From NCBI GenBank assembly GCA_964560355.1, contig CAZLLI010000002.1:3622-67621 (forward strand): a DNA stretch of 64,000 nt. The letters run 5' to 3'. A model generated the notes under the pieces. That model saw only the letters and a program-made list of their open reading frames with translations. It was not told the DNA's origin and made no database searches. This stretch comes from an uncultured bacterium. GTDB taxonomy: Bacteria > Krumholzibacteriota > Krumholzibacteriia > WVZY01 > JAKEHA01. Shown piece by piece: positions 21,092-43,672 of the stretch. A program made the translations under genes and the position numbers. Position 1 is the stretch's first letter. Every line of letters begins with the position of its first letter.

Positions 21092-23836
21092 CTACCGCAC
21101 CACCGTCACGCGCCGCGTGAGCACCGACGACGCAGCGCGCATCCGCACGAAATAGACCCCCGAGCTCACGCGCTCGCCGCGGTCGCCGCGCAGGTCCCAC
21201 GCGGCGGTGTGCATGCCTTTGGCGCGGCGCTCGTCGAGCACGGTGCGCACGCGCGCGCCGCGCACGTCGAATACCTCGATGCGCACGGGGCCGTCGTTCT
21301 CGACGCGGAAGCCGAGGGTGGCCGCGCGCCCGGTCGGATTTTCTCCCGCGATCCACAACAACGCCGGCGCGCCGCGCTTCGCGGGAAGGACCGCGGTCGC
21401 GGTGGTGTCGGGTACCGACGTCGGGTCGCCGGGGTCGGAGCCGGCGTCGAGTTCGTCGCCGTCGCGATAGCCGTCGAGATCGCGGTCGACGCCGAGCCGG
21501 TCTTCGCAGCCCTCCAGCACACCCGTGAACGTGATCTCGGTGCCGGCGCCCGCCATGGAGAGGAGCTGGAGCTGCGAGAGGTCGGCTTCGCTCTCCTTGT
21601 CGGGGCGATACGATCCGCCGCCGATGTACACCCACCCGCGCGGCTGTCCGCCCGCGCGTCCCTTCGCCACCAGCCCGATGGTGTTGGCGTCGGCGAGCGA
21701 CTCGAGCGTGTTCACGCGCGCGATGCCCGCGGGCTCGTTGCTCCCGTCCATGGTCCACTGCGCGCCCACGCCGGGGTGGGTCGGGGTGGCGAAGGCGAGC
21801 ATGAACGCTTCCACGTCGTGCTGGTCCTGGTCGTTCGCGAACGTGAACAACGGAAATTCGAAGAAGTCGAACAGCGTGCCGAATTCGCCGTCGTGGGTGA
21901 AACCGAAACCGCGCACGCTGGTCGGGCCCGCCGCGTTGAATCCGGTCTTCTTGTAGAGATTGCGCAGCTGCGGAACCTTGCGCGCTTCGTCTTGCAAGAG
22001 CGCGCCGGCGGGAATGATGAAACCGTTCTCGCCGGTGGGGAGCGTGTGACAGAACACGCACTGCCCGCCGCCGAACAACCCGCCGCTCGAAAACAACGAC
22101 TGGCCGTGCGACGGGTCGGCGCCGTCGAGCGTCGCGGGCAGCGAGCCGTCGAGCTCGCGGAACGGATTCGACGGGTAGCGCATGCTGAACACGAACTGCG
22201 TGAACGTCGTCATGTCGCCGGGCGAAAGCGACGACGGCGCGCCCAAGAGTCCCATGAAGGCGACGTTGAAATCGGCCAGCGTCGCGCGGTCGCCGCGCCA
22301 GTGCAGCGGCTCGGTGCCCGAGAGGCTCTTCAGAGCTTGCGTCACCATCGGGCCCTTCATGGGGTGGAACGGAGGCAAGCCCGGCGTTTGTCCGGGGGGC
22401 ACCGGGATGGTGGATGCCGCGGACGGGTCGCCCAGATCCCACGCCAAGCCGTCCATGTCGCCGAACACGTGACAACTCCCGCACGCCAAGTCTCCGTGCG
22501 CCGACGAGATCTCGCCGTCGTACAGGAAATGTCGGCCGTCGCGCACGTAGGAAGGACTCGGGTCGAACCCGAGCGAAACTTCCTGCGACGAATCGTTCGA
22601 CAAGTCGACCACCGAGATCGAGCTCGAGAAGCGGTCGAGGACGTAGAGGCGGTTGCGCGTCTCGTCGAGCGCGAGGCCGCCGGGCCCGTCGCCCACCGCG
22701 ATGCGCCGCGTCACCGCGCCGCTCGCGTCGAGCACCGCGACCTTGCGCGACCCGAACGCCGCCACGTACACCGACTGGCCGTCGCCCGCGATGGCGACGT
22801 CGAGCGGGATGCACACCGACTGCGCGCGCTCGCCCGCGTTGCCGGCCGGCGTCCCGTAGTCGATGTGTGCGTTCAAGTGCGACGGCGTCGCGATGCCGCT
22901 ATTCGGGTCGACGATCGTGATCCGGTTCTGCAGGAACTTGCCGCGCACATTGGGCTCGAAGCGGATCTGGTTCGACGCGTCCTGGTTGGTCACGTACAGA
23001 TTGCCCGACGGATGCACGGCGATATTGAACAGGGTAGTGCCGACGCCGTGATAGTTCGCGACCACCGAAAGCGACGCCGCGCTCACGGCGACGACGTCGT
23101 TGTCGAGCAGCGTGAAGGGAAGAAACGCGTCCCAGTTGCGCCCGATTTCGTCGAGCCAGTTGGCGCCGTCGTGCTGGACGATGAGCGCCACGTTCGGCGC
23201 CGCCGGCAGCGCGGGATTCATGGGCGGCGTGGGCGCCGGCAGCCCGCCGTTCGCCTGCACGACGTCGGCGCCCACCAGCGTGGTCCGGTTCCCGCTGTCG
23301 AGCGCGCACACGTACACGGTCGTTTGGTCCGGCGACAGCGCGAGCGCGCGCGGCGAACCCATCGCGAGCGGAATGTCGACGGGGGGCGCTTCGAGGTCGA
23401 GCAAGTCGTAGACGCGCAGCTTGGCTTCGCGCGACACGCACACGAACGCGCGCCCGCCCGCGAACACGACGTCGGTGGGTTCGTCGCCGACCAACAGCGT
23501 GCGCACCACGTGGCCGCTCGACAGGTCGACGATGCTAATGTCGTCGGAGACATGATTGACGACCCACACTTCGCTCGCCGTGCGCGCGCGCACGGTAACG
23601 GGCTCGAGCCCGACCATGACCTCCGCCATCTTGTGCGGCGGGTCGACGGTCAGGTCGAACGCGACCAAGCGATGGTCGGCGGTGTGCGCGGCGTAGAGGA
23701 TGTTGCCGCCCGGCGCCAAATCGAGCGGGTGCACGGGGGCGCTTTCGAAGTGCGTGAGGTCGTCGGAAAAGGAGAGCGACGGCGATAGGACCGACAGCAA
23801 TACCACAAGCGACGAACGGAGCGCGGTACCGAGCAT
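21092..23836 (-). CDS. Secreted beta-propeller (YVTN-like) fused to diheme cytochrome c peroxidase/MauG-like domain, with C-terminal FlgD-Ig/T9SS-type sorting domain
   Basis: 914 aa with a signal peptide. Two CxxCH heme motifs (CGSCH, CVFCH) lie in the central region. The C-terminus (VFDVRGARVRTV..GVYFVRMRA) resembles a Por-secretion tail. Confidence 0.8.
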   Translation of the reverse strand: MLGTALRSSLVVLLSVLSPSLSFSDDLTHFESAPVHPLDLAPGGNILYAAHTADHRLVAFDLTVDPPHKMAEVMVGLEPVTVRARTASEVWVVNHVSDDISIVDLSSGHVVRTLLVGDEPTDVVFAGGRAFVCVSREAKLRVYDLLDLEAPPVDIPLAMGSPRALALSPDQTTVYVCALDSGNRTTLVGADVVQANGGLPAPTPPMNPALPAAPNVALIVQHDGANWLDEIGRNWDAFLPFTLLDNDVVAVSAASLSVVANYHGVGTTLFNIAVHPSGNLYVTNQDASNQIRFEPNVRGKFLQNRITIVDPNSGIATPSHLNAHIDYGTPAGNAGERAQSVCIPLDVAIAGDGQSVYVAAFGSRKVAVLDASGAVTRRIAVGDGPGGLALDETRNRLYVLDRFSSSISVVDLSNDSSQEVSLGFDPSPSYVRDGRHFLYDGEISSAHGDLACGSCHVFGDMDGLAWDLGDPSAASTIPVPPGQTPGLPPFHPMKGPMVTQALKSLSGTEPLHWRGDRATLADFNVAFMGLLGAPSSLSPGDMTTFTQFVFSMRYPSNPFRELDGSLPATLDGADPSHGQSLFSSGGLFGGGQCVFCHTLPTGENGFIIPAGALLQDEARKVPQLRNLYKKTGFNAAGPTSVRGFGFTHDGEFGTLFDFFEFPLFTFANDQDQHDVEAFMLAFATPTHPGVGAQWTMDGSNEPAGIARVNTLESLADANTIGLVAKGRAGGQPRGWVYIGGGSYRPDKESEADLSQLQLLSMAGAGTEITFTGVLEGCEDRLGVDRDLDGYRDGDELDAGSDPGDPTSVPDTTATAVLPAKRGAPALLWIAGENPTGRAATLGFRVENDGPVRIEVFDVRGARVRTVLDERRAKGMHTAAWDLRGDRGERVSSGVYFVRMRAASSVLTRRVTVVR

Positions 23837-23975
23837 CGGGTGTGTCTCCTAGACGAATCGGAGTGACGGAATCGCCAAGCGTGAGGGTTGATTTTAGCAT
23901 ACCGTCGCGCCTCACCACAACCGCGGAGTAACGACGCTTGCACGAAATATCGCGTCCGCGTTAGCCTCTCCAACC

Positions 23976-28509: not shown

Positions 28510-30120
28510 ATGATCGGTTACCTGGCGCGGAAGGTCCGACGCCACCGCGCACGGCGAACGTTTCGCGAGTACGGCTTCGACGTAAAGCGCTTCGCGCTCG
28601 CGCGCGACGGCGACGTCGAGTACGCGCAGTGGCAGCACCCCTTCGAGAAACCGAAGACGATCGTGCAGGACGACGTCGACGGGCTGCGGCGCTTCATCCG
28701 CGCGGGCGACACCGCCATCGACGTGGGCGCGCACACCGGCGACACCACGGTGCCGATGGCGCTCGCGTGCGGCCCCGACGGCGTCGTGGTGGCGTTCGAG
28801 CCCAACCCGCACGTGTTCAAGGTGCTCGAGGAAAACGCGCGCCTCAACCCCGACAAGACTCACATCGTCGCGCTCAATTTCGCGGCCACCGAAGACGACG
28901 GCGACTTCCAGTTCCACTACTGGGACGCGTCGTTCGGAAACGGCGGCTACCTCTCGCGCCTTCGCAACCAGCGCCACGGCCACCGCTATCCGCTGCGCGT
29001 GAAGGGGCGCAACCTCGAGCGCTACCTGCGCACGAACTTCGCCGACCGCCTCGCGCGCCTCACGTTCCTCAAGACCGACTGCGAGGGCTACGACAAGGAT
29101 GTGCTGCGCTCGTTGCGCGGGGTGTTGCGGGAGTTCCGCCCCGTCGTCGTGTGCGAAGTGCACAAGAAGCTCGACCACGCCGAGCGTCATGAGCTCTTCG
29201 ACGTGCTGAAGGACGCCGGCTACGTCCTCCACACGTACCAAGGCGGCGCGCACCCGGTGGGCGACGCCCTCGCGCGCGACGACCTCGCGAAGTTTCCGCG
29301 CCTCGACGTGATCGCGTTCCCCGAGGAGAGGGGAGCCGGCGAGACCCGCGGGGACGCGGGACGCCAACCGCTCCCGTCGACCGCGTCCACGCCGTTCGTC
29401 GAGCGGCGCGCGACGCCGATCGGCCGCGCGCAGCGCGTGCTCAAGGTCGCGGGGTGGATCTTCGTGGCGTGGATCGTGCTCACGGTCGGGCCCGTGATCG
29501 CGCTGCGGTGGGTCGACCCGCCGACCTCGGCCTTCATGGTGCAGCGCCGCATCGAGGGGCTCGTGCACCCGTCGCACCGCGTCGCCATCCAGTACCACTG
29601 GGTCGACATGGACCGCGTGTCGAAGAACACGCGCCTCGCCATGATCGCGGCCGAAGACCAGCGCTTCACCGAACACGACGGCTTCGACTTCGACGCGATC
29701 GAGAAGGCGCGCGAGCACAACCGCCGGCGCGGGCGCTTGCGCGGCGCGAGCACCATCTCGCAGCAGGTGGCGAAGAACTTGTTCCTGTGGCCCGGTCGCA
29801 GCTGGTTTCGCAAGGGCGTCGAGGCGGGTTATACCATCCTCATCGAAGCGTTGTGGCCCAAGAAGCGCGTGCTCGAGGTGTACCTCAACATCGCGGAGTT
29901 CGGCGACGGCGTCTACGGCGTCGACGCGGCGTCGCGGCGCTTCTTCCACAAGTCGCCCGCGCGCCTGGGCCGGCATGAGAGCGCGCTGCTCGCGGCCGTG
30001 CTGCCCAACCCGCGCCGCTTCAAGGTCGACAAGCCGTCGAAGTACGTCGAGCGGCGCGCGTGGTGGATCGAGCGCCAGATGATTCGACTGGGCCCGGCCG
30101 CGCTGGAGCCGCTGTCGTGA
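28510..30120 (+). CDS. Fusion protein: FkbM-family methyltransferase (N-terminal about 270 aa) + monofunctional peptidoglycan glycosyltransferase MtgA (GT51, C-terminal about 250 aa)
   Basis: FkbM motifs [18 protein letters not shown] helix follows, then the MtgA hallmarks [30 protein letters not shown] and NIAEFG. One uninterrupted ORF. Confidence 0.8.
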
Positions 30121-30548
30121 CCACGACGCGCGCACTCGCCTACGGTTGGGCGTCTCCCACCACGGCGGTCGGCTTGGTGCTGGTGGCGGCGGCGCTGGCG
30201 ACGGGCGCGCGCGCGTCCGTGGTCGACGGCGTGGTGGAGGCGCACGGCGGATTGCTCGACGCGATGCTGCGTCGCTTCGTGCCGTTGCGCGGCGGGGCCA
30301 GCGCGATGACGCTCGGGCACGTCGTGGTGGGGCGCGATCCGGGATCGCTCGATCGCACGCGCGCGCACGAGCGCGCGCACGTGCGCCAGGCGGAACGGTG
30401 GGGTCCGTTCTTCCTCCCCGCGTACGTGGCGTCGTCGCTCGCGGTCGCGCTGCGCGGCGGGCACTACTATCGCGACAATCGTTTCGAGCGCGAGGCGGTC
30501 GCGGTGGCGTCGCAGGGTGCTCGGGCACCGGAAGGAGTCCGCTCGTGA
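30117..30548 (+). CDS. Hypothetical protein with HExxH (HERAH) motif, putative mini metallo-hydrolase
   Basis: GTG start overlapping the upstream TGA. 143 aa with a hydrophobic N-terminus. In frame with track ORF 30060-30548. Confidence 0.5.
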
Positions 30549-30889
30549 AGGTCACGCTGGTCACCGTTCTCCTGCTCACCGCGTCGAACGTCTTCATGAC
30601 CTTCGCGTGGTACGGACACTTGAAGCACATGCACGCGAAGCCGTGGTTCGTAGCGGCGCTGGTGAGCTGGGGAATCGCGTTCTTCGAGTACATGATCCAG
30701 GTTCCGGCCAACCGCATCGGGTTCCGGGTGATGGATCTCGCGCAGCTCAAGATTCTGCAGGAAGTGGTGACGCTCTCCGTGTTCATCCCGTTCGCGGTGT
30801 TCTACATGCGGGAGCGCCCGCGCCTCGACTATTTGTGGGCGGCGATGTGCCTCTTGGGAGCCGTCTACTTCATGTTCCGGCGCCCCTAG
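30545..30889 (+). CDS. DMT-superfamily small membrane protein (DUF486-like)
   Basis: GTG start overlapping the upstream stop. 114 aa with 4 TM helices and a YGHLKH motif. Confidence 0.6.
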   Translation: MKVTLVTVLLLTASNVFMTFAWYGHLKHMHAKPWFVAALVSWGIAFFEYMIQVPANRIGFRVMDLAQLKILQEVVTLSVFIPFAVFYMRERPRLDYLWAAMCLLGAVYFMFRRP

Positions 30890-31035
30890 GGCCTCTCGAT
30901 TTTGCTTTGACCGCGGCGTCGAACTGGCCTACGATACGTGGGTTACAGGACCGATGGGGGACGGTCCGTGGGCCATCACGCACCCTTCTCGCGCGCCCGG
31001 CGCCTGGCCGGTCCGCCTCGCCGCAAGCGGCCACC

Positions 31036-33651
31036 ATGGTTCGGTTTCTCCCCAGCCTTCGTGTTGTGGCGTTGATCGCCTTCGTCGCGGCGACCGCGCC
31101 GGTCGCGCGCGCCGGCGTCGACCCCGACTCGCTGTACCTCGCGCGCCATCCCACCCTCTTCTTCGGCCCCGGCGACGTGCCCGCGCTGCGCGCGCGCGTC
31201 GAAGCCCCCGGCGCCCCCGCCGACGCCTTCGCCTTCATCCGCGACGCCGTCCACGACACCTATCCGGCGGTGCCGATCGATTCGCTGATCGACAACGACT
31301 TCGCGCAGGAGCCGATCATGAATCTCGGGCTGGTCGGTTTCTTGAGCGACCCCGTCGACGACGACGCGCTCGCGCTCGGGCGCGCGCTCACCCTCCACAT
31401 CGTGCGCACCTGGGACGTCGACACCGACGCCTTCGGGTCGTCGCTGCGCCTGCGCCAGATGGCGATCGGGTACGACCTCTACTTCGCGGGTGCGACACCG
31501 CTCGAGCGCGCCGAGGTGCGCGCCGAAGTCGCGAGCTACATTTCGTACATCGTTTCCAGCATGGCGTACGACATCTGGCTGCACCGCCCGTACGCGAGCA
31601 ACAAGAGCGCGATGATCGCCGCCGCGCTGGGCCTGGCCGCAATCTCGTTCCGCGACGAGATCGCCCCCACGCTGACCGCGGCCGCGTTCGCGCGCTGCAC
31701 GGCGCTCTACGACGTGTGGCGCTCAACCTACATCGCGGACGACGGGTGCTATCGCGAAGGCGCGCTGTACGGCGCGTGGAGCTTCCGCAACCTGATTTAC
31801 TACTTCCAGGCGCGCACGCGCTTCGACGGGACCTCGTTCTCCAACGACTGGGCGGTGCGCGAGTTCGAGCGTTGGTACGCGTACGAGCTCGACCCGCGCG
31901 GCGGCGCGCGCTTGAACAACATCCAGGACCTGACCGACTACTACCTGCCGCTCGCGCGCCACACCACGTACTTGGAGTGGGCGATGTCGGAGTGGGGAAG
32001 CGGACTCGCGCGCTATATCTGGGACCGCGCGTCGGGGCCGCTCGGCGTCGACCTAGGCGACGAGAACGACAAGGCGGCGACGGTGCTGTGGCATGAGGAC
32101 GTGCCGTCGATCAACCCGGGGACAATCCTCCCCGAGAGCGCGCTGTGGAAGGGACGCGGGCTGTATTACTACCGCTCGGGCTGGGCGGACGGAGCCTCGT
32201 CGGACGACATCTCGCTCAGCTTCTACTCGGGCGAATTTCGCGGCGGCCACGCCCAGGAGGACCAGAATCAATTCACGCTGACCGCCTTCGGCGAGAAGCT
32301 CGTGATCGACCACGGCGCCGGCGGCACGGCGCGCCAGAGCGAAGCGCACAACATCGTGCGCATCGACCTCGCGGGACAGTTCAACGCGGGCGCGTCGATC
32401 GGCACCGACGGCCGCATCGCGCAGTCGATGCTGACCGGCTTCGCGGACTATCTGTGCGGCGACGCCACCGCCGCGTACACCACGCACAGCCCCTACAACA
32501 ACCCCGGCGTGCCCTACCCGGCGACGGATTGGTCGTGGGGTTACGGCGGCGCGAATCCGGTCGAGCGCGCGCTGCGGCGCATGGTGGTCGTGCACGGCGC
32601 GGGCTTTCCGACCTATTTCATCGTGCAGGACGACATTCTCAAGGACGGTGCCGTGCACCGCTACGACTGGTGCGCGCACTTCCCGGATTCGTCGACCATC
32701 GATGCGTCGGCGCCCAAGGGCCCCATCGCGGTCGCCGTGGGCGGGGCGCGCCTCGATTTGCACACGCTGTTTCCGCCCAAGCCAGCGCTTGCGGGCGTGA
32801 TCCGGACCACGTTCGATAACCAGGCCGAGGATCCCGACTCGAGGCTTTTGATGCTGACGACCTTCGCGATCAATCCGAAGTTCGCGCTGCTGCTAATCCC
32901 GCGGCGCGCGGGCGACGCCGCTACGGTGGTGCAATCGTCGACCTTCCCGGCCGGCACCATGAGCGTGGTGCGCTCGCCGTCGGGCGCGCTCGACGTGGTG
33001 TGGGTGCGCGGCAATCACGTCGGGCCGGTGGCGCCGCCGCCCGCCGGCGACGACGGCGAGGGGTGCGGCCCGGTCTCGATCGACGCCGAGCTCGCGGTGG
33101 TGCGAATGGGGGCGGCGGGCGTCGAGCGCTATCTCGCGGTCGACGCGCGCTCCATCGCGTGCGCGTCCGGCGACGTCGTCACGATTCTCGACGGCACCGC
33201 GACCTTCGCCTTCGACGGTACGCGCGTCACCATCGACCGGCCCGACGCCGAGTTTCGCATCCTCGCCGACGGTGTGAGCGAAGTCGTGTGCGACGGCGCG
33301 GTGGTCCCGACCGGCCTCGACGGCCGCTACTTGGTGCGCGTCTCCGCCACCGCGGTGACGACACCCGCGCGCGGCGACGGGCTGGGGCTGCGCGCGTATC
33401 CGAATCCGTTCAACCCGTCGGTGCGCATCCGCTTCGCCACCGCGGCGCGCGCGCACGTCGATGCGCGCGTCTACGACGCCGCCGGTCGCTTCGTGGCGAC
33501 GCTCGCGTCGGGCGCGATGGCGGGCGGTGAACACTCGATGGAGTGGAACGGACGCGACCACCGCGGCCGTGAAGCGGCGAGCGGCGTGTATTTCCTGCGC
33601 GTGCGCGCGGGGTCGGCGAGCGAATCGTTGAAACTGGTGCTGGTGCGTTAA
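31036..33651 (+). CDS. Heparinase II/III-like (alginate lyase / polysaccharide lyase) protein with C-terminal T9SS-type sorting domain
   Basis: Signal peptide, alpha/alpha toroid N-terminal region and a heparinase II/III-like middle region. The C-terminus AYPNPFNPSVRIRF..VYDAAGRFV..GVYFLRVRAG is a canonical FlgD-Ig/Por-secretion tail. Confidence 0.8.
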   Translation: MVRFLPSLRVVALIAFVAATAPVARAGVDPDSLYLARHPTLFFGPGDVPALRARVEAPGAPADAFAFIRDAVHDTYPAVPIDSLIDNDFAQEPIMNLGLVGFLSDPVDDDALALGRALTLHIVRTWDVDTDAFGSSLRLRQMAIGYDLYFAGATPLERAEVRAEVASYISYIVSSMAYDIWLHRPYASNKSAMIAAALGLAAISFRDEIAPTLTAAAFARCTALYDVWRSTYIADDGCYREGALYGAWSFRNLIYYFQARTRFDGTSFSNDWAVREFERWYAYELDPRGGARLNNIQDLTDYYLPLARHTTYLEWAMSEWGSGLARYIWDRASGPLGVDLGDENDKAATVLWHEDVPSINPGTILPESALWKGRGLYYYRSGWADGASSDDISLSFYSGEFRGGHAQEDQNQFTLTAFGEKLVIDHGAGGTARQSEAHNIVRIDLAGQFNAGASIGTDGRIAQSMLTGFADYLCGDATAAYTTHSPYNNPGVPYPATDWSWGYGGANPVERALRRMVVVHGAGFPTYFIVQDDILKDGAVHRYDWCAHFPDSSTIDASAPKGPIAVAVGGARLDLHTLFPPKPALAGVIRTTFDNQAEDPDSRLLMLTTFAINPKFALLLIPRRAGDAATVVQSSTFPAGTMSVVRSPSGALDVVWVRGNHVGPVAPPPAGDDGEGCGPVSIDAELAVVRMGAAGVERYLAVDARSIACASGDVVTILDGTATFAFDGTRVTIDRPDAEFRILADGVSEVVCDGAVVPTGLDGRYLVRVSATAVTTPARGDGLGLRAYPNPFNPSVRIRFATAARAHVDARVYDAAGRFVATLASGAMAGGEHSMEWNGRDHRGREAASGVYFLRVRAGSASESLKLVLVR

Positions 33652-34898
33652 GCGGCGGCTGTGTTCGACGCGCCCGTGACGACGGGGGTCAAGCGCGCGA
33701 ACGCGGTGCGCAGCGAACGCTCGACCGCGTCCGCCGACTCTCCGCGCGCGAAGATGAATCCGGTGTAGAGAAATCCTTCCGGCAGCGGCTCCATCGACTG
33801 GCCCGGCCGCGCCGCCACGATCACTTCTTCGATCCCGGGCACGTCGCACGCCGCCGGCACGCCGCGCATCTCTTCGAAGCGCCCGCGGCGCGGAGACTGC
33901 ATCATCCACACGCCCGCCGCGCGCGCGTCGAGCGGCGGAACTTCTCCCAACATTCCCAATGCGTCGGCCAGGATGACGTCTTCCAGTGCGCGCCCGTCGG
34001 CGAAGCGAACCACGCGCGAGCACAAGCCGCCGATGGAGCGCGCGTGGACCTCGATCGGCATCACACGCTCGTCGTCGCCGCGTATCTCGACGTGGAAGGG
34101 GCCGTGGGTGAGTCCCACCGCGCGCACCGCGTCTTCGGTCAGGCGCACGATGCGGTCCACCGCGCGCGCGCCGAGGCGCGACGGCGTCACGTACATGGTC
34201 TCGGGGAAGTAGGGGCCTTCGAGCGGGTCGGGTTTGTCGAACACCGCGAATACGTGCGCACGTCCCTTCGCCATGATGCCTTCCACCGCGACTTCCCACC
34301 CCGGCACATACGATTCGACCAGGAGGTGGTCGGCGTTTTCATTCTCCGCCGGCGCGCTCGACGCCACCAGCGCCGCCACGCGCGCGAACGCATCGACGAA
34401 CTGGCGCGCGTCGTCGACGCGGATGACGCCGCGGCTCGCCGCCATCGCGAGCGGCTTCACCACCGCCGGGTACGCGATCGCGTGCGCCGCGTCGCGAAAC
34501 TCGTCGACCGCCACCAGCCGGTAGTCGGGCTGTGCGATGCCGGCCGCGCGCATGCATTCGCGCGCGCGAAACTTGTCGCGCGCCGCGCGCACCGCGCCCG
34601 CGGGATTGTGCGGGAGTCCTAGCGCTTCCGCGATCACCGCCGCCGCCAGCGTCGCCTGGTCGTCGACGGCCACCACGGCGTGGATCGGGTGCGCACGCGC
34701 GAGCGCGTACGCGCGCGCGGCGGCGTCGGCCGGGCGTGAGAAGTCGAAGGTGGGCAAGTCGACCGGGTGCAAGTGCGAGAGCGAGTTGGGAGCTTCCGAC
34801 GCGATGCTCAAGTCGACCGGCAAACGCTGCGCGGCGCGGATGAACGCCTCGGCGCGGTAGGTCGACGTGGGGACGAGCAGGAGCAGGCGGGGCTTCAT
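33648..34898 (-). CDS. ATP-grasp domain protein (carboxylate-amine/thiol ligase family)
   Basis: 416 aa with ATP-grasp core motifs (AYPAVVKP, LVESYVPGWEVAVEG). Last gene of a three-gene minus-strand operon. Confidence 0.75.
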   Translation of the reverse strand: MKPRLLLLVPTSTYRAEAFIRAAQRLPVDLSIASEAPNSLSHLHPVDLPTFDFSRPADAAARAYALARAHPIHAVVAVDDQATLAAAVIAEALGLPHNPAGAVRAARDKFRARECMRAAGIAQPDYRLVAVDEFRDAAHAIAYPAVVKPLAMAASRGVIRVDDARQFVDAFARVAALVASSAPAENENADHLLVESYVPGWEVAVEGIMAKGRAHVFAVFDKPDPLEGPYFPETMYVTPSRLGARAVDRIVRLTEDAVRAVGLTHGPFHVEIRGDDERVMPIEVHARSIGGLCSRVVRFADGRALEDVILADALGMLGEVPPLDARAAGVWMMQSPRRGRFEEMRGVPAACDVPGIEEVIVAARPGQSMEPLPEGFLYTGFIFARGESADAVERSLRTAFARLTPVVTGASNTAAA

Positions 34899-34908
34899 CG
34901 CGCGGCGT

Positions 34909-35541
34909 CTACTTCGACGACGGCGCGTAGTACGGGTTGCGGCCGGCGGCGTGGTCGGTGGTGTCCATGATCGCGCCGACCTCGGGGACTTCCTCGCGAA
35001 TGGTGCGCTCGACGCCGTACTTCAGCGTCACGCTGACCATCCCGCAACCCTGGCAGCCGCCGCCGAATTCGAGGAACACCGTGTTGTTGGTGACGTCGAG
35101 CAGGTGCACGACGCCGCCGTGGCTCGCGACCGCGGGATTGATGATGGTGTCGAGCACTTGCTGCACGCGGCGCTTCACTTCGGCCGGCGCGAGCAGGGTC
35201 TCGGTGACGGCGTCGGAGATCGCGGTTCCGGAAGCGATCGCGTCGCGAATCGCCGCCGCGACGCGCGGCACCTTCGCCTCCCAGTCGGCGTCGCCCAGGA
35301 GCGTCACGCGCACGGCGTCGTGCATCACCAACACGTCCGCCACGCCCTCGATCGCGAAGAGGCGGTCGACCAAGGGCGACCCCTGCGACTGCGACGCGTC
35401 GGCGAAATAGGCCGAGTGGTTCGCGTACACGGGCTCGCTCGCCGTGAAGGTGCACTGCTCGGGGTGCACCATCGACGGCGTCGCGGTGATGCGAACCGTG
35501 CGCCCTTGCGGGAGTTCGAAATTGAGGGTCAGTTCATCCAT
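34909..35541 (-). CDS. Nfu-type Fe-S cluster carrier (Nfu_N scaffold domain + NifU-like CxxC domain)
   Basis: 210 aa. The C-terminal domain carries GGGCQGCG, the canonical NifU/Nfu cluster-binding motif. Confidence 0.8.
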   Translation of the reverse strand: MDELTLNFELPQGRTVRITATPSMVHPEQCTFTASEPVYANHSAYFADASQSQGSPLVDRLFAIEGVADVLVMHDAVRVTLLGDADWEAKVPRVAAAIRDAIASGTAISDAVTETLLAPAEVKRRVQQVLDTIINPAVASHGGVVHLLDVTNNTVFLEFGGGCQGCGMVSVTLKYGVERTIREEVPEVGAIMDTTDHAAGRNPYYAPSSK

Positions 35542-35655
35542 AGTACCGCGATCATAGGCAACGCGCGCGCGTCACGCAAGCGCGCCGTCGCCGCCTTCGT
35601 CGTGGTGCCGGCTCCACGCGTGGAGAGAGCCCAACTGGCTCTCGGTGGGCTCCGC

Positions 35656-37068
35656 TCAGCAAAACCAATCCTCCGTGAGGCGCGGCGCCGCGCCGCGCCG
35701 GCGCGGGTGCGCGGTTCCGGTGCGCGCAGGATCGGCGGCGGCGCGCACGCGCGCGAAGGCGTCGAAGGCGTCGAGCCCGTCGGCGGAGGCGGCCGCGGCC
35801 GCGCGCGCCACCGAGCGCTGGAGCTCGTCCATCGACGGGTCGGGGTGCGTCCAGCGGTGCGAGAGCGTCTCCGCGTCGAAGGCACCCAGGTGCGGGCGCA
35901 TCTCGGCGGCGGAAAGGAGCAGGGATCCGTCCGGCACCAGCAATCGAATCGAGTACTGCACGGCGTCGACGTGGTCGGTCAACCCTTCGCCGTCCACGAT
36001 GTCGAAGAGCTCCGCGTAGCTCGCGCGCGTCTCCCACGGCGTGAACGGCACGAAGGTCGGGCGCAGCGCGAGCCCGCGCGCGCGGAAGCGCGCGGCCACG
36101 GCGAGCGCATCGGCGCGCGTGTGCCCCTTGCGCAATGCCGCGAGCACGTCGTCGTTGAACGACTCCGCCGCCGACACCACGAAGAGGTTGCCGAGCGCCT
36201 GCAGCTCGCCCACCACGTCGTCGTAGCGAAGCAGGTGCTCGATCTTGGCGGTGTAGTCGAAGGTGAGCCCCGCGAAGCGGCGCGACAGCTCGCGCGCGAC
36301 GCGCAGCGCGTGGGTGGGTCCGTTCAGAAAGTCCGCGTCGGCGAAGGTGACGTGGCGCGCGCCGCGCGCGAACAGGGTCGCGACGTCGTCCATCACGCGC
36401 TCGAGCGGGAGCGCGTAGAACGCACCGTGGTACGCGGGTGGGAGCGGGCAGTGGCGGCACGCGTGCTTGCACCCGCGCGTCGCCGCCACGTGGGCGACGT
36501 CGACGCGGGTTTCGCCGTGCACGAGCTTGGCGTAGCGCTCGCGGTGGAAAAGGGCGTCGCGCGCGGGCGTGAGGTCGAGCGCGCGCCCGGATGAGCGAAG
36601 CGCGTCGGACGCGCGCGACTCGGGAGCGACGTCGCGCGGGCGCGCCGACCCCGATGCGCGCGCGTCGGCCACGCGACGCACGAGCGCGAGCAAGGGTGCT
36701 TCGAACTCCGCGCCCAGCACGGAATCGGCGAGGCCGCCGCGCAGGCGCGCTTCGTTCAACCCGGCGTACAACCCGAAGAAGCACACGTGCGCGTCGGGGT
36801 TGACGCGGCGCACGATGGTCGCGACCTGCACACCCAGTCGCAGCGCGGTGTGCATGGGCGCCGAGATGGCGACGAGGTCGGCGCGCGCGAGGGCGTCGAC
36901 GTCGATAGGCGACACCGCGAGGTCGAGCAGGCGCGCGGAGAAGCCGGCGCGCGCGAGCACGCCCGCGGGGACGACGAGGCCGAGCGGCTCCTGCCCCATC
37001 TCGTAGCACGAGACCAGGAGGACGCGATCGCTTGGCGAAGGAGCGGGGTCGGTGGCGCGCGCCTGCAT
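35656..37068 (-). CDS. B12-binding domain radical SAM protein
   Basis: N-terminal cobalamin-binding Rossmann-like segment (VLLVSCYEMGQEP). CxxxCxxC radical SAM motif (GCKHACRHC). 470 aa. Confidence 0.8.
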   Translation of the reverse strand: MQARATDPAPSPSDRVLLVSCYEMGQEPLGLVVPAGVLARAGFSARLLDLAVSPIDVDALARADLVAISAPMHTALRLGVQVATIVRRVNPDAHVCFFGLYAGLNEARLRGGLADSVLGAEFEAPLLALVRRVADARASGSARPRDVAPESRASDALRSSGRALDLTPARDALFHRERYAKLVHGETRVDVAHVAATRGCKHACRHCPLPPAYHGAFYALPLERVMDDVATLFARGARHVTFADADFLNGPTHALRVARELSRRFAGLTFDYTAKIEHLLRYDDVVGELQALGNLFVVSAAESFNDDVLAALRKGHTRADALAVAARFRARGLALRPTFVPFTPWETRASYAELFDIVDGEGLTDHVDAVQYSIRLLVPDGSLLLSAAEMRPHLGAFDAETLSHRWTHPDPSMDELQRSVARAAAAASADGLDAFDAFARVRAAADPARTGTAHPRRRGAAPRLTEDWFC

Positions 37069-37160
37069 GCCGCGAGTATAAGGAAGGGGCGGTCACGACG
37101 CCACGGCGACGGCGCGGGCAATCGTGTATACTGCGCCCGGGCCGACACGCGGAGGTAACG

Positions 37161-39209
37161 ATGGCCAATCAGGATTCGCACCGCATGCGGCCGGCGAGAT
37201 GGAAGCCCGGGTTCTCGCTGGACCGGATCGAGTCACCCCACGACGCCACCCCGGGCGCTTCCGACGCCGACCGCGTCGTGCGCGGAAGGGCGCTCATCTT
37301 CTGGGACCCCAAGCGCCCCGGTCAAAAGCTCGACGCCATCGACACCGACCAGATCACGCCCGCCAAGGACTGCGTGTCGGAGAGCCTCGACGCCCTCGAC
37401 AAGAATTGGAAGGAAGGCGCGTTTCGCTTTCTGATGCCGGACTTTCGCGCGCGCGTCCACCGCGGCGAAACCTTCCTGGTGGCGGGCGACCGCTTCGCGA
37501 TCGGGTCGTCGCGCGAGATGAGTCCCGCGGGGCTGCGCGCCATCGCCGAGGAAGCGGGCCTCGAGATGGTGATCGTGTGCGGCCACAACGTCGGCGATAT
37601 CTTTCGCCGCAACTCGCTCAACCTCGGGTTGGAAGTGGTCCAAAACGCGGAGGCGGTCGCGGACGCGCAGGACGGCGACGAGTTCTCGTACCTTCCCGCC
37701 ACGCGCACGCTGACCAACGAGACGCGCAAGAAGACCTACCAACCCGTGCCACTCTCCGCCAAAGAAGACGAGATTCGGCGTTCGGGTGGAATCTTCGACA
37801 TCGGGCGGCGCGAGTTCCGCGAGTCGCTCGCGCGCACGCCGGAGGCCGCGTGGCCCGACGAAGCGACCGCGCGCGGGCTCACCACCACCGAGCAGATCGC
37901 GTGGGCGCACCGCGTCGACAAGGACGCGCGCGTCGAGCCCGGGCGCACGCTGCGCGTGTTCGCGGACCTCTTGCCCGCGTCCGACGGCACCGCGCCCTTT
38001 GCCATTCATACCTTCAATCAGATCGCGCGCGGCGCCATCTACCCGCGCCAGGCCGCCATCGCGAACGACCACTTCGTGTTCACGGGCGCCGACGCCGACG
38101 ACAAGCAGACGCGCATCGGGCGCGCGTTCGCGGAGCAGAACGAGCTCGGCAAGCCGTATTACGCCACTCCTGGCGACGGCATCTTCCATTTCTATTTTCC
38201 GGAGCAAGGTCTCATCTATCCGGGGCAGGTCGTGCCCGGCGCGGACTCGCACTCGCGCGCGTACGGCGCGTACGGTGCCGTCGGCATCGGGGTGGGCTCG
38301 ACTACGCTCGGCTTCGGGTGGGCGCTCGGCTACGTGTACTTCACGCCCGCGAAGGCGCGCCGCGTCGTGTTCACCGGAAAACTGCAGCCGTGGGTGACGG
38401 GCAAGGACGTCGTCTTGAAGCTCCTCGAGCGCTGGGGCGCGAAGCAATCGCAGGGCATGTCGGTCGAATTGGTCGACGCCAATCTCCAGCTGCCGATCGC
38501 GTACCGCAACACCATCGCGAACATGATGGCGGAAGCGGAGGCGCAAAACGGCATCTTCGCGGCCGACGACGTCACCGAAGCGTGGTACCGGTCGAAGGGG
38601 TTCGGCGCGCTGCCGTACCCGCGCCTCGCGCCGGGCGCCGACGCGCGCTACGAGATCGACGAGACCCTCGACCTATCGAGCGTGGTGCCGATGGTCGCGA
38701 AGCCGTTCAGCCCCGGTAACGCGTTCCCCGCCGACGAAGTGGCGCGCGAGCGCATCTCGTTCGACAAGGCGTTCATCGGTTCGTGTACCAACGGCAGCTA
38801 CGACGACCTTCTGCAGGCGGCGCTGGTGGTCAAGCGCGCGCGCGAAGCCGGCTTCACGCGGGCCACCAAGCCGTTCATCGTGTTTCCGGGGTCGGGCGGA
38901 GTGAAGACGCTCATCGAGCGTCCCGACGCGCGCCTGGGCGGCGAGTCGGTCGCCGACGTGCTGCGCTCCGTGGGCGCGCAGATTCGCCAGTCGTGGTGCG
39001 GGCCGTGCTTCGGGCAAGGACCCGACGCGCTCAAGAAGGGCGAGCGCGCGATCACGTCGTTCAATCGCAATTGGCAGAACCGCATGGGTGTGGGGGGCGA
39101 AGGCTATCTCGCGAGCCCGTCGGTGGTGGCGGCGTCGGTGCTGGCGGGATACATGGCGCCCCCGAGCGAGCTCGGCATCGTGTGGAACGCGGAAGCCTTC
39201 GCGCTCTAG
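37161..39209 (+). CDS. Aconitase-family Fe-S hydro-lyase with permuted domain order (swivel/LeuD-like domain N-terminal, catalytic LeuC-like domains C-terminal)
   Basis: GGAGG RBS. N-terminal FWDP..IDTDQI swivel signature. The C-terminal region carries ADSHS, IGSCTNGS and CGPCFG cluster-ligand motifs. Confidence 0.75.
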   Translation: MANQDSHRMRPARWKPGFSLDRIESPHDATPGASDADRVVRGRALIFWDPKRPGQKLDAIDTDQITPAKDCVSESLDALDKNWKEGAFRFLMPDFRARVHRGETFLVAGDRFAIGSSREMSPAGLRAIAEEAGLEMVIVCGHNVGDIFRRNSLNLGLEVVQNAEAVADAQDGDEFSYLPATRTLTNETRKKTYQPVPLSAKEDEIRRSGGIFDIGRREFRESLARTPEAAWPDEATARGLTTTEQIAWAHRVDKDARVEPGRTLRVFADLLPASDGTAPFAIHTFNQIARGAIYPRQAAIANDHFVFTGADADDKQTRIGRAFAEQNELGKPYYATPGDGIFHFYFPEQGLIYPGQVVPGADSHSRAYGAYGAVGIGVGSTTLGFGWALGYVYFTPAKARRVVFTGKLQPWVTGKDVVLKLLERWGAKQSQGMSVELVDANLQLPIAYRNTIANMMAEAEAQNGIFAADDVTEAWYRSKGFGALPYPRLAPGADARYEIDETLDLSSVVPMVAKPFSPGNAFPADEVARERISFDKAFIGSCTNGSYDDLLQAALVVKRAREAGFTRATKPFIVFPGSGGVKTLIERPDARLGGESVADVLRSVGAQIRQSWCGPCFGQGPDALKKGERAITSFNRNWQNRMGVGGEGYLASPSVVAASVLAGYMAPPSELGIVWNAEAFAL

Positions 39210-41176: not shown

Positions 41177-43672
<2,496 letters not shown>

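Follow-up and report, generated by a model that had tools for sequence, protein, structure and literature searches.

A swivel-first fusion in the isopropylmalate/homoaconitase clade: a putative iron-sulfur hydro-lyase family with an invariant recognition loop in uncultured soil bacteria

Introduction

The aconitase superfamily has become a textbook example of how domains are rearranged and of how a short loop sets substrate specificity. AcnB of Escherichia coli is the only solved classical aconitase in which the swivel domain (domain 4) precedes domains 1-3, i.e. the order 4-1-2-3. The same order is described for type I AcnX (PMC10040528), and a five-residue loop sets the specificity of the small subunits of the isopropylmalate isomerases (IPMI) (PMC7308503). 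The present work concerns an open reading frame (ORF) at positions 37161-39209 (+ strand) of a 64,000-nucleotide stretch of contig CAZLLI010000002.1 (assembly GCA_964560355.1, an uncultured bacterium of the Krumholzibacteriota), which is referred to as the window throughout the text. The original prediction, made from the letters alone, had described its product as an aconitase-family protein with an AcnB-like permutation but without the HEAT domain. As judged from sequence comparisons of both halves, the gene is an independent small-large fusion inside the archaeal-type IPMI/homoaconitase clade. By analogy with characterised members, its product is probably a monomeric [4Fe-4S] hydro-lyase/isomerase in which a LeuD-type part is fused ahead of a LeuC/HacA-type part, and its substrate would be a substituted malate whose side arm is not a carboxylate. 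The new element is an abundant uncharacterised family with an invariant specificity loop, while the domain order itself is already known.

An intact gene and its family

37161-39209, + strand: complete ORF of 682 amino acids (aa) plus stop, coding for a single-polypeptide aconitase-superfamily enzyme with the domain order 4-1-2-3

ORF 37161-39209 is a real, intact gene. The start ATG lies at 37161, with GGAGG 5 nt before it, inside a stop-to-stop frame (36909-39209) whose third-position GC content (GC3) is 0.86; the GC content of the window is 67%. A database protein (P0001, 682 aa) is 100% identical to the window protein, and 117 of the best 119 other protein clusters are 666-687 aa long with 96-100% query coverage, the outliers in length being P0063 (749 aa) and P0080 (649 aa). 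Furthermore, the two parts are fused in a single ORF in all of the best 80 genome loci, contig ends permitting. One case that the original prediction had named as a refutation, an artefactual fusion of two genes that a frameshift separates in relatives, was therefore rejected, since the relatives carry one fused ORF that is nearly always full-length, at about 680 aa. Identity to the query amounts to 72-88% among these clusters and loci, which across phyla suggests strong purifying selection on the family.

The family is present at no fewer than 566 genome loci (at least, in the genome scan made here) and in thousands of metagenomic clusters. The best 80 loci (72-87% identical to the query) are nearly all metagenome-assembled genomes and belong to Krumholzibacteriia/Latescibacteria, Acidobacteriota (Vicinamibacterales, Thermoanaerobaculia and others), Eisenbacteria and Chloroflexota-Limnocylindria. 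The family is found in some of the commonest uncultured bacteria of soil. In the literature searched, no description of the family was found. The names given to the relatives at NCBI are only “aconitase family protein” or “hypothetical protein”, and the automatic annotation of JGI implies isopropylmalate dehydratase (LeuCD function). Such a label, propagated by automatic pipelines, would distort reconstructions of leucine biosynthesis.

Domain order and structure

37161-37331, + strand: N-terminal extension, aa 1-57, with the family-conserved motif HR-x-x-PAR-x-KPG (31-sequence alignment A1; low predicted local distance difference test score, pLDDT)
37332-37811, + strand: swivel domain (aconitase domain 4, LeuD-like small-subunit homologue), aa 58-217 (TIGR02087, PDB 3vba and 1v7l, Aconitase_C)
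37812-37880, + strand: linker from the swivel domain to domain 1, aa 218-240 (gap between the envelopes of the hidden Markov models, HMMs; secondary structure of the AlphaFold2, AF2, model)
37881-39170, + strand: aconitase domains 1-3 (LeuC/HacA-like large-subunit homologue), aa 241-670 (Aconitase, NF001614, PDB 4kp1, 4kp2 and 1aco)

The HMM coordinates place the swivel domain ahead of the catalytic domains. The NCBIfam model LEUD_arch (TIGR02087) matches aa 58-216 over positions 8-155 of its 157 (E 7.8e-18), the small subunits 3vba (E 5e-10) and 1v7l (E 1e-9) of the PDB match aa 58-222, and Pfam Aconitase_C covers aa 96-157 at 22.4 bits, just short of its cut-off of 22.8 bits. The remainder of the chain is matched by Pfam Aconitase (aa 255-663, E 3.8e-75), by the large-subunit models of NCBIfam (aa 241-670) and by the M. 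jannaschii LeuC structure 4kp1 (aa 238-670, E 6e-43). The earlier reading of the letters is borne out on each of these points: the swivel signature IDTDQI, assigned to the first 200 aa, lies at aa 60-65 within a swivel domain supported by LEUD_arch, 3vba and 1v7l, and the Fe-S ligand motifs, assigned to the C-terminal 450 aa, lie at aa 360-365 (GADSHS), 539-546 (IGSCTNGS) and 613-618 (CGPCFG). The same is true of the claim that a protein of 682 aa has no N-terminal HEAT-like domain (domain 5 of AcnB), as only 57 residues precede the swivel domain; this extension has no Pfam match and is not a HEAT domain, and neither the HEAT-like Aconitase_B_N nor the swivel Aconitase_2_N of AcnB was matched in Pfam at E <= 0.01.

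The AF2 model, built from alignment A1, is of moderate quality (mean pLDDT 73; predicted template-modelling score, pTM, 0.72), with pLDDT values below 50 at the recognition loop (aa 62-76) and in part of domain 1 (aa 271-350). In this model the start of the linker continues a helix predicted at aa 210-224. Foldseek ranks E. coli AcnB first among the PDB matches of the model (1l5j; E 2e-26, 750 aligned columns, TMq 0.58), and the two are collinear, and the permuted topology is thus seen in the predicted structure as well. The matches that follow, namely the structures of M. jannaschii LeuC and HacA and that of mitochondrial aconitase, cover the catalytic part only.

Descent of the two halves

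The phrase “AcnB-like permutation” in the original prediction is accurate for the domain order, as seen from the HMM coordinates and Foldseek, but descent from AcnB is contradicted by the HMM scores, profile alignment, alignment z-scores and the tree. The archaeal-type LeuC/HacA subfamily model NF001614 scores 288 bits, versus 53-88 bits for the AcnB models, which match aa 489-669 only and fall far below their cut-offs (TIGR00117, 53 vs 1287 bits; NF006690, 88 vs 782 bits). When the family profile was aligned with E. coli AcnB by hhalign, aa 339-675 aligned and the swivel domains did not; the swivel alignment scored z = 10.6 against E. coli LeuD and z = 3.3 against the swivel region of AcnB. 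In a neighbour-joining (NJ) tree of the catalytic domains, where the family was represented by the query, P0121 (the 74% representative) and the divergent full-length P0123 (46%) and P0127 (43%), the family nests among the large subunits of IPMI and homoaconitase (HACN) type, with AcnB and AcnA outside. This tree is rough: for AcnA the Kimura distances reach saturation, and one long-branch fragment lowers the support of the core clade to only about 50%. An AcnB orthologue that has lost its HEAT domain was rejected, given that the AcnB HMMs match C-terminally only, that the protein has a LeuD-type swivel domain and that the tree places AcnB far off.

No curated model reached its cut-off in the NCBIfam search, which hence gave no equivalog or subfamily assignment. 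This applies to the IPMI models (LEU2, 256 vs 611 bits; IPMI_arch, 244 vs 410; leud, 57 vs 246; LEUD_arch, 65 vs 109), to the HACN models (hacA_fam, 243 vs 386; HacA_Meth, 196 vs 550; the HacB models, 33-57 vs 229-230), to the aconitase models (NF005558, 239 vs 612; TIGR01342, 189 vs 719; aconitase_mito, 128 vs 825) and to the AcnA models (56-72 vs 686-945).

Catalytic and cluster-binding residues

37503-37517, + strand: GSSRE motif, aa 115-119 (PDB small-subunit alignment; GSSREMS in 230 of 233 members)
37968-37997, + strand: LLPASDGTAP with S274 (HMMER alignments to 1aco, 4kp1 and 4kp2; kept in 212 of 233 members)
38238-38267, + strand: GADSHSRAYG, with D362-S363-H364 equivalent to aconitase D165-S166-H167 (alignment to 1aco; 230 of 233 members)
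38775-38798, + strand: IGSCTNGS, with the first cluster ligand C542 equivalent to aconitase C358 (alignment to 1aco; invariant in A1)
38997-39017, + strand: CGPCFGQ, with the cluster ligands C613 and C616 equivalent to aconitase C421 and C424 (alignment to 1aco; 232 of 233 members)
39063-39083, + strand: NRNWQNR, with N635, R636 and R641 equivalent to aconitase N446, R447 and R452, including the carboxylate-binding arginines (alignment to 1aco; all three invariant in A1)

The GSSRE motif corresponds to S642/S643/R644 of mitochondrial aconitase, i.e. the catalytic-base Ser together with the substrate-binding Ser and Arg. Further equivalences to that enzyme obtained with HMMER are D303/H304 with D100/H101, H343 with H147, and N454/E458 with N258/E262. 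The mapped catalytic set, the three Cys ligands, the DTD motif and GSSRE, which has been described as a conserved substrate-binding motif (PMC7308503), are all invariant in A1. Since the full catalytic set and the swivel motifs are conserved, the protein appears to have all the residues needed for an active [4Fe-4S] hydro-lyase. By its ligands and catalytic residues it is an aconitase-superfamily iron-sulfur dehydratase, with a predicted cluster. Two replacements are seen in domain 1: S274 occupies the position of mitochondrial aconitase Q72, where the aligned M. jannaschii LeuC and HacA have His, and FHFY stands where IHQI or CHQV stands in the enzymes compared.

The substrate-recognition loop

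37341-37385, + strand: DTDQITPAKDCVSES, comprising the Asp equivalent to mitochondrial aconitase D568 and then the recognition loop (aligned with VDTDAILPARYLVYTK of MJ1277)

The loop motif DCVSESL is present in 233 of 233 family members, within an invariant DTDQITP-x-x-DCVSESL. The residue that precedes DCVSESL is variable (A, K, R, S, Q, T or D), and thus the loop carries no conserved basic residue. In the alignment, the DCVS of the loop DCVSE stands opposite the hydrophobic YLVY of MJ1277, the small subunit of M. jannaschii IPMI, and E74 stands opposite the Arg of the AcnB loop SPAPDAWSR in a local alignment. This Arg shares its position with R580 of mitochondrial aconitase and R26 of HacB, binders of the distal carboxylate; Jeyakanthan et al. 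(2010) reportedly assign this role in homoaconitase to the Arg of the HacB loop YLRT. As far as the alignments reach, the recognition loop is unlike that of any enzyme with known specificity, and, by alignment, it has an acidic residue where aconitases and homoaconitase carry the Arg that binds the distal carboxylate. The invariant basic residues of A1 lie past the loop (K84, R89, R96 and R98), with K84 and R89 situated 20-26 residues beyond D63.

The invariant Cys of this flexible loop, which would lie by the active site, is kept in the divergent relatives P0123 and P0127 (EFCVSG and VDCVSY) as well as in P0221 (RYCTTT). Aconitases have precedent as moonlighting regulators, and the protein might accordingly be imagined as primarily a sensor or regulator instead of a dedicated metabolic enzyme. 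It would then work as a switch based on its Fe-S cluster or a thiol and might bind RNA, as do IRP1, AcnA and AcnB, with Cys71 being redox-sensitive or serving as the fourth cluster ligand; the lack of a metabolic gene neighbourhood would also fit. Nevertheless, the invariance of the complete catalytic set argues for catalysis, RNA-binding and HEAT domains are absent, and an Rfam search of the window found no element. Such a regulatory role is pure speculation and most improbable.

Proposed reaction and substrate

Cluster binding, reaction type and substrate class are here assigned by analogy with aconitase and isopropylmalate isomerase. C542, C613 and C616 would hold the cluster, the fourth iron being left free for the hydroxyl and a carboxylate of a 2-hydroxy-dicarboxylate. 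The proton would be abstracted by the Ser of GSSRE in the swivel domain, and the leaving OH would be protonated by the H304/D303, H343 and H364/D362 pairs. R636, R641 and R118 would hold the two core carboxylates, while the variable side arm would be read by the swivel loop DCVSES. As this loop is polar and acidic, with neither the Arg of aconitase and homoaconitase nor the hydrophobic residues of LeuD, citrate, homocitrate and isopropylmalate are most likely not preferred as substrates; a derivative of malate whose arm is small, polar or positively charged appears more likely. The original prediction had assigned no substrate specificity, which is in line with the present analysis.

Several observations weigh against a substrate with a non-carboxylate arm. 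The modelled loop (aa 62-76) has a pLDDT below 50, which leaves D70, C71 and E74 unplaced relative to the active site, and the invariant K84, R89, R96 and R98 could reach the pocket and bind a carboxylate. Residues near the ligands (SYDD, CGPCFGQ and TSFNRN) resemble those of mitochondrial aconitase. In Limnocylindria, a neighbour of the LeuA/homocitrate-synthase family (0-2 kb away) fits citrate, homocitrate or an alkylmalate as substrate too. Moreover, the gene of an aconitase of central metabolism would be expected to look much the same, standing alone and being highly conserved.

A more specific and tentative version of the preferred reading, which is possible but which we hold with less than even confidence, is that the family performs a hydro-lyase or isomerase reaction as yet unassigned to the aconitase superfamily, on a malate derivative whose arm is polar or cationic instead of a carboxylate or alkyl group and is read by the invariant, acidic and thiol-containing DCVSES. 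The reaction would belong to the conserved core metabolism of phyla that are dominant among uncultured soil bacteria (Vicinamibacterales and other Acidobacteriota, Limnocylindria, Eisenbacteria and Krumholzibacteria). In a variant of this version, the loop cysteine would gate or ligate the labile iron. Once identified, the substrate could point to a step in the central or cofactor metabolism of these lineages that has so far gone unrecognised.

Genomic context and coexisting enzymes

33651-34898, - strand: ATP-grasp L-amino-acid-ligase-like gene
34912-35541, - strand: NifU/Nfu-like gene
35659-37068, - strand: B12-binding radical S-adenosylmethionine (SAM) gene
41177-43669, + strand: 2-oxoglutarate dehydrogenase E1 (831 aa), 2 kb downstream of the fusion gene

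There is no gene neighbourhood conserved across phyla. When 14 window genes were searched by tblastn against the 80 loci, synteny was found in close relatives only (L001-L009), and in two de novo clusterings of the flanking ORFs, which covered about 78 loci, none of the neighbours recurred in more than 12. Neighbours that recur by Pfam (M28 peptidase, ApaG, MacB/FtsX and LMF1) are lineage-specific and uninformative. In the window, the fusion gene is divergent from the three - strand genes (33651-37068), which may form a small-molecule or peptide modification module. This ATP-grasp/NifU/radical SAM trio is syntenic only in the Krumholzibacteria/Latescibacteria relatives L001-L007, and in the 80 loci its link to the aconitase gene has no support outside that lineage.

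Downstream of the fusion gene lie an FMN reductase, an aldo-keto reductase and the 2-oxoglutarate dehydrogenase E1. The last of these is among the points in favour of the main rival explanation, a genuine aconitate hydratase (citrate to isocitrate) that would act as a second or alternative aconitase of the tricarboxylic acid (TCA) cycle, an analogue of AcnB made from LeuD/LeuC-type parts. The protein has all the catalytic and carboxylate-binding residues of domains 1-3, among them the mitochondrial-like IGSCTNGSYDD, CGPCFGQ and TSFNRN; its gene is a lone, extremely conserved, housekeeping-like one; and NF005558, an “aconitate hydratase” model, scores 239 bits. Re-citrate synthases are members of the LeuA family, a synthase of which lies near in Limnocylindria, and a LeuB-like Iso_dh gene is near in L061. 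However, the loop has no conserved Arg or Lys at the position of R580 and the AcnB Arg, where E74 is aligned, Ser replaces aconitase Q72, and every aconitase equivalog model is far under its cut-off. The 2-oxoglutarate dehydrogenase linkage is a lineage-specific synteny confined to close relatives, and thus provides no evidence for a TCA role. Furthermore, the C-terminal 85 residues of a canonical AcnA are encoded at positions 3-257 of locus L051, 7.7 kb upstream of the family member on the same contig, so that the family member is not the sole aconitase there. An aconitate hydratase is therefore unlikely, although it stays under consideration in view of the poorly modelled loop and of the invariant K84 and R89 a short way past its end.

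The contigs of other relatives bear on the idea that the protein serves leucine or isoleucine biosynthesis as a fused isomerase of isopropylmalate or citramalate (LeuCD function). This explanation would account for the top HMM and PDB matches, which are archaeal-type LeuC and LeuD, for the naming of the relatives by JGI and for the proximity to leu/ilv genes in Limnocylindria. In L048 and L060, however, canonical LeuC and LeuD (59-60% and 45-46% identity to those of E. coli) are encoded a few kb from the family member, and in L090 and L091 separate Aconitase and Aconitase_C genes share the contig with it, which argues that the family is not the leucine isomerase of those genomes. In addition, the flanking-ORF clusterings showed no linkage to leuA or leuB in loci outside Limnocylindria, DCVSE takes the place of the hydrophobic YLVY, and the scores of LEU2 (256 vs 611) and LEUD_arch (65 vs 109) given above fall well short. 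A role as LeuCD is thus improbable.

In Limnocylindria (L061, L048 and L060), a divergent 404-407-aa protein of the LeuA/homocitrate-synthase family is encoded 0-2 kb upstream of the homologue. It scores 171 bits with the fungal/archaeal homocitrate synthase model and 164 bits with NifV, all its NCBIfam scores being far under the cut-offs, and L061 has a LeuB-like Iso_dh gene 2 kb downstream. Together with the 243 bits of hacA_fam, this HMGL-like synthase and dehydrogenase would suit a homoaconitase for lysine synthesis via alpha-aminoadipate, or another elongation of a 2-oxoacid with an acidic arm, with the synthase as partner. Against this, the loop is acidic and lacks an equivalent of the Arg in the HacB motif YLRT, all HACN models are under their cut-offs, and the linkage is seen in one class only, with intervening genes and with the synthase in an operon with the E1alpha and periplasmic-binding-protein genes rather than with the fusion gene. 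Such a homoaconitase-type role is quite improbable. The LeuA-family synthase was likewise rejected as an operon partner, since longer contigs show the intervening genes and the operon with the E1alpha and binding-protein genes; its linkage is a weak lead, and toward an “alkylmalate-type substrate” only. Among the matches listed in a homologue search with this synthase, the places were filled by Limnocylindria at an identity of at least 80%.

The unit to which the synthase belongs in Limnocylindria was noted in its own right. It comprises a pyruvate dehydrogenase (PDH)-E1alpha-like gene, a Peripla_BP_6 gene and the divergent LeuA-family synthase (404-420 aa), and it adjoins both the homologue of the fusion gene and canonical leu/ilv genes (L061, 4528-7993; L048, 3971-7980; L090, 7826-11215; L091, 7191-11263). 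No E1beta gene was seen with the E1alpha unit at these listed loci, and a thiamine pyrophosphokinase gene stands ahead of the unit in L048 and L091.

Elsewhere in the window, 28510-30117 (+ strand) encodes a 536-aa protein of unusual architecture, in which an FkbM-type methyltransferase (aa 71-239) is joined to a GT51 peptidoglycan transglycosylase (aa 361-524) without a transpeptidase domain. Two proteins of more than 900 aa (30517-33648, + strand; 21095-23848, - strand) end in FlgD_ig, the first of them also in Por_Secre_tail. These are C-terminal sorting domains (type IX secretion cargo), which fits an origin in the FCB group, of Krumholzibacteriota-like kind.

Comparison with known systems

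The original prediction held that the domain arrangement resembles only that of AcnB, and this did not survive the wider comparison, as the order is shared by type I AcnX and by the swivel-first LeuD-LeuC fusions P0216, P0221, P0238 and P0253. E. coli AcnB (1l5j) remains the best whole-length structural match, a single polypeptide of order 4-1-2-3 with the collinear motifs TD-x-(L/I)-(S/T)-PA-x-D-x-x-S and GSSR(E/K). The window protein differs from it in having no HEAT-like domain, in its identity of 18%, in a LeuD-type swivel domain, in the Glu that stands for the Arg of the AcnB loop and, by its placement, in a separate origin.

The closest sequence relatives, in both halves, are the two-subunit IPMI and homoaconitase of M. 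jannaschii (MJ0499+MJ1277 and MJ1003+MJ1271; 4kp1, 3vba, 4kp2 and 2pkp), which share the catalytic residues and the three Cys ligands and likewise have a specificity loop in the small subunit, the counterpart of the swivel domain. In contrast to these, the window protein is a small-large fusion with a 57-aa N-terminal extension and a linker, and it has DCVSE in place of YLVY or YLRT, Ser274 for the His of HD-x-T, and FHFY for CHQV.

Type I AcnX (Agrobacterium tumefaciens; 7cnp and 7cnq) is likewise encoded by a single gene with the order 4-1-2-3, and Foldseek aligns 625-641 columns with it. Nevertheless, identity in these alignments is only 11-12% (Foldseek E 2e-6 to 4e-6 for 7d2r, 7cnp and 7cnq), and the window protein has the classical motifs of aconitase, LeuC and LeuD. 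Membership in AcnX was rejected on the basis of this identity and of the Pfam search of the protein, which gave no AcnX match.

The large-first “putative aconitases” (NF005558/PRK07229 and TIGR01342; about 600-690 aa) are also single-chain fusions of LeuC- and LeuD-like parts and are similar in size, but their order is 1-2-3-4 and the window protein reaches 239 bits against a cut-off of 612. The relatives P0193 to P0264 have this large-first architecture, and many large-small fusions were also found by the representative search with domain mapping.

The remaining swivel-first fusions were accompanied by contexts of their own. P0216 (577 aa; L086, 6935-9734) lies directly downstream of a LeuB-like dehydrogenase and a polyketide synthase (PKS) of more than 2600 aa, from which we infer an HphB/HphCD-type module for amino-acid homologation in a natural-product cluster. 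P0253 (604 aa; L089, 8001-12038) overlaps the start of a gene like PrpB/methylisocitrate lyase, followed by an isochorismatase-family hydrolase and an alpha/beta hydrolase, and its locus may encode a catabolic module that pairs a hydratase with a lyase, in the manner of the maleate or dimethylmaleate type. P0238 belongs to a tandem pair of swivel-first LeuD-LeuC paralogues (589 and 594 aa; L088, 5988-9785). As to the divergent members of the family itself, P0123 and P0127 each lie on a single short contig with uninformative neighbours.

P0216, P0221, P0238 and P0253 (577-604 aa) resemble the window protein in their small-then-large order and in belonging to the broad IPMI/HACN clade. They differ from it in an identity of 32-36%, in being shorter, in having no N-terminal extension and in their loops; all four pass the cut-off of PRK00402 and all but P0216 also that of LEUD_arch, whereas the window protein passes neither. 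In the NJ tree the fusions are scattered, and 0 of 100 bootstraps grouped all the swivel-first proteins as monophyletic. This scatter, together with the order 4-1-2-3 of AcnX, argues that the permutation is recurrent. The family would thus add an independent origin of the order 4-1-2-3 within the IPMI/homoaconitase clade and, alongside the other small-large fusions, it indicates that the permutation arose repeatedly and is not a peculiarity of AcnB.

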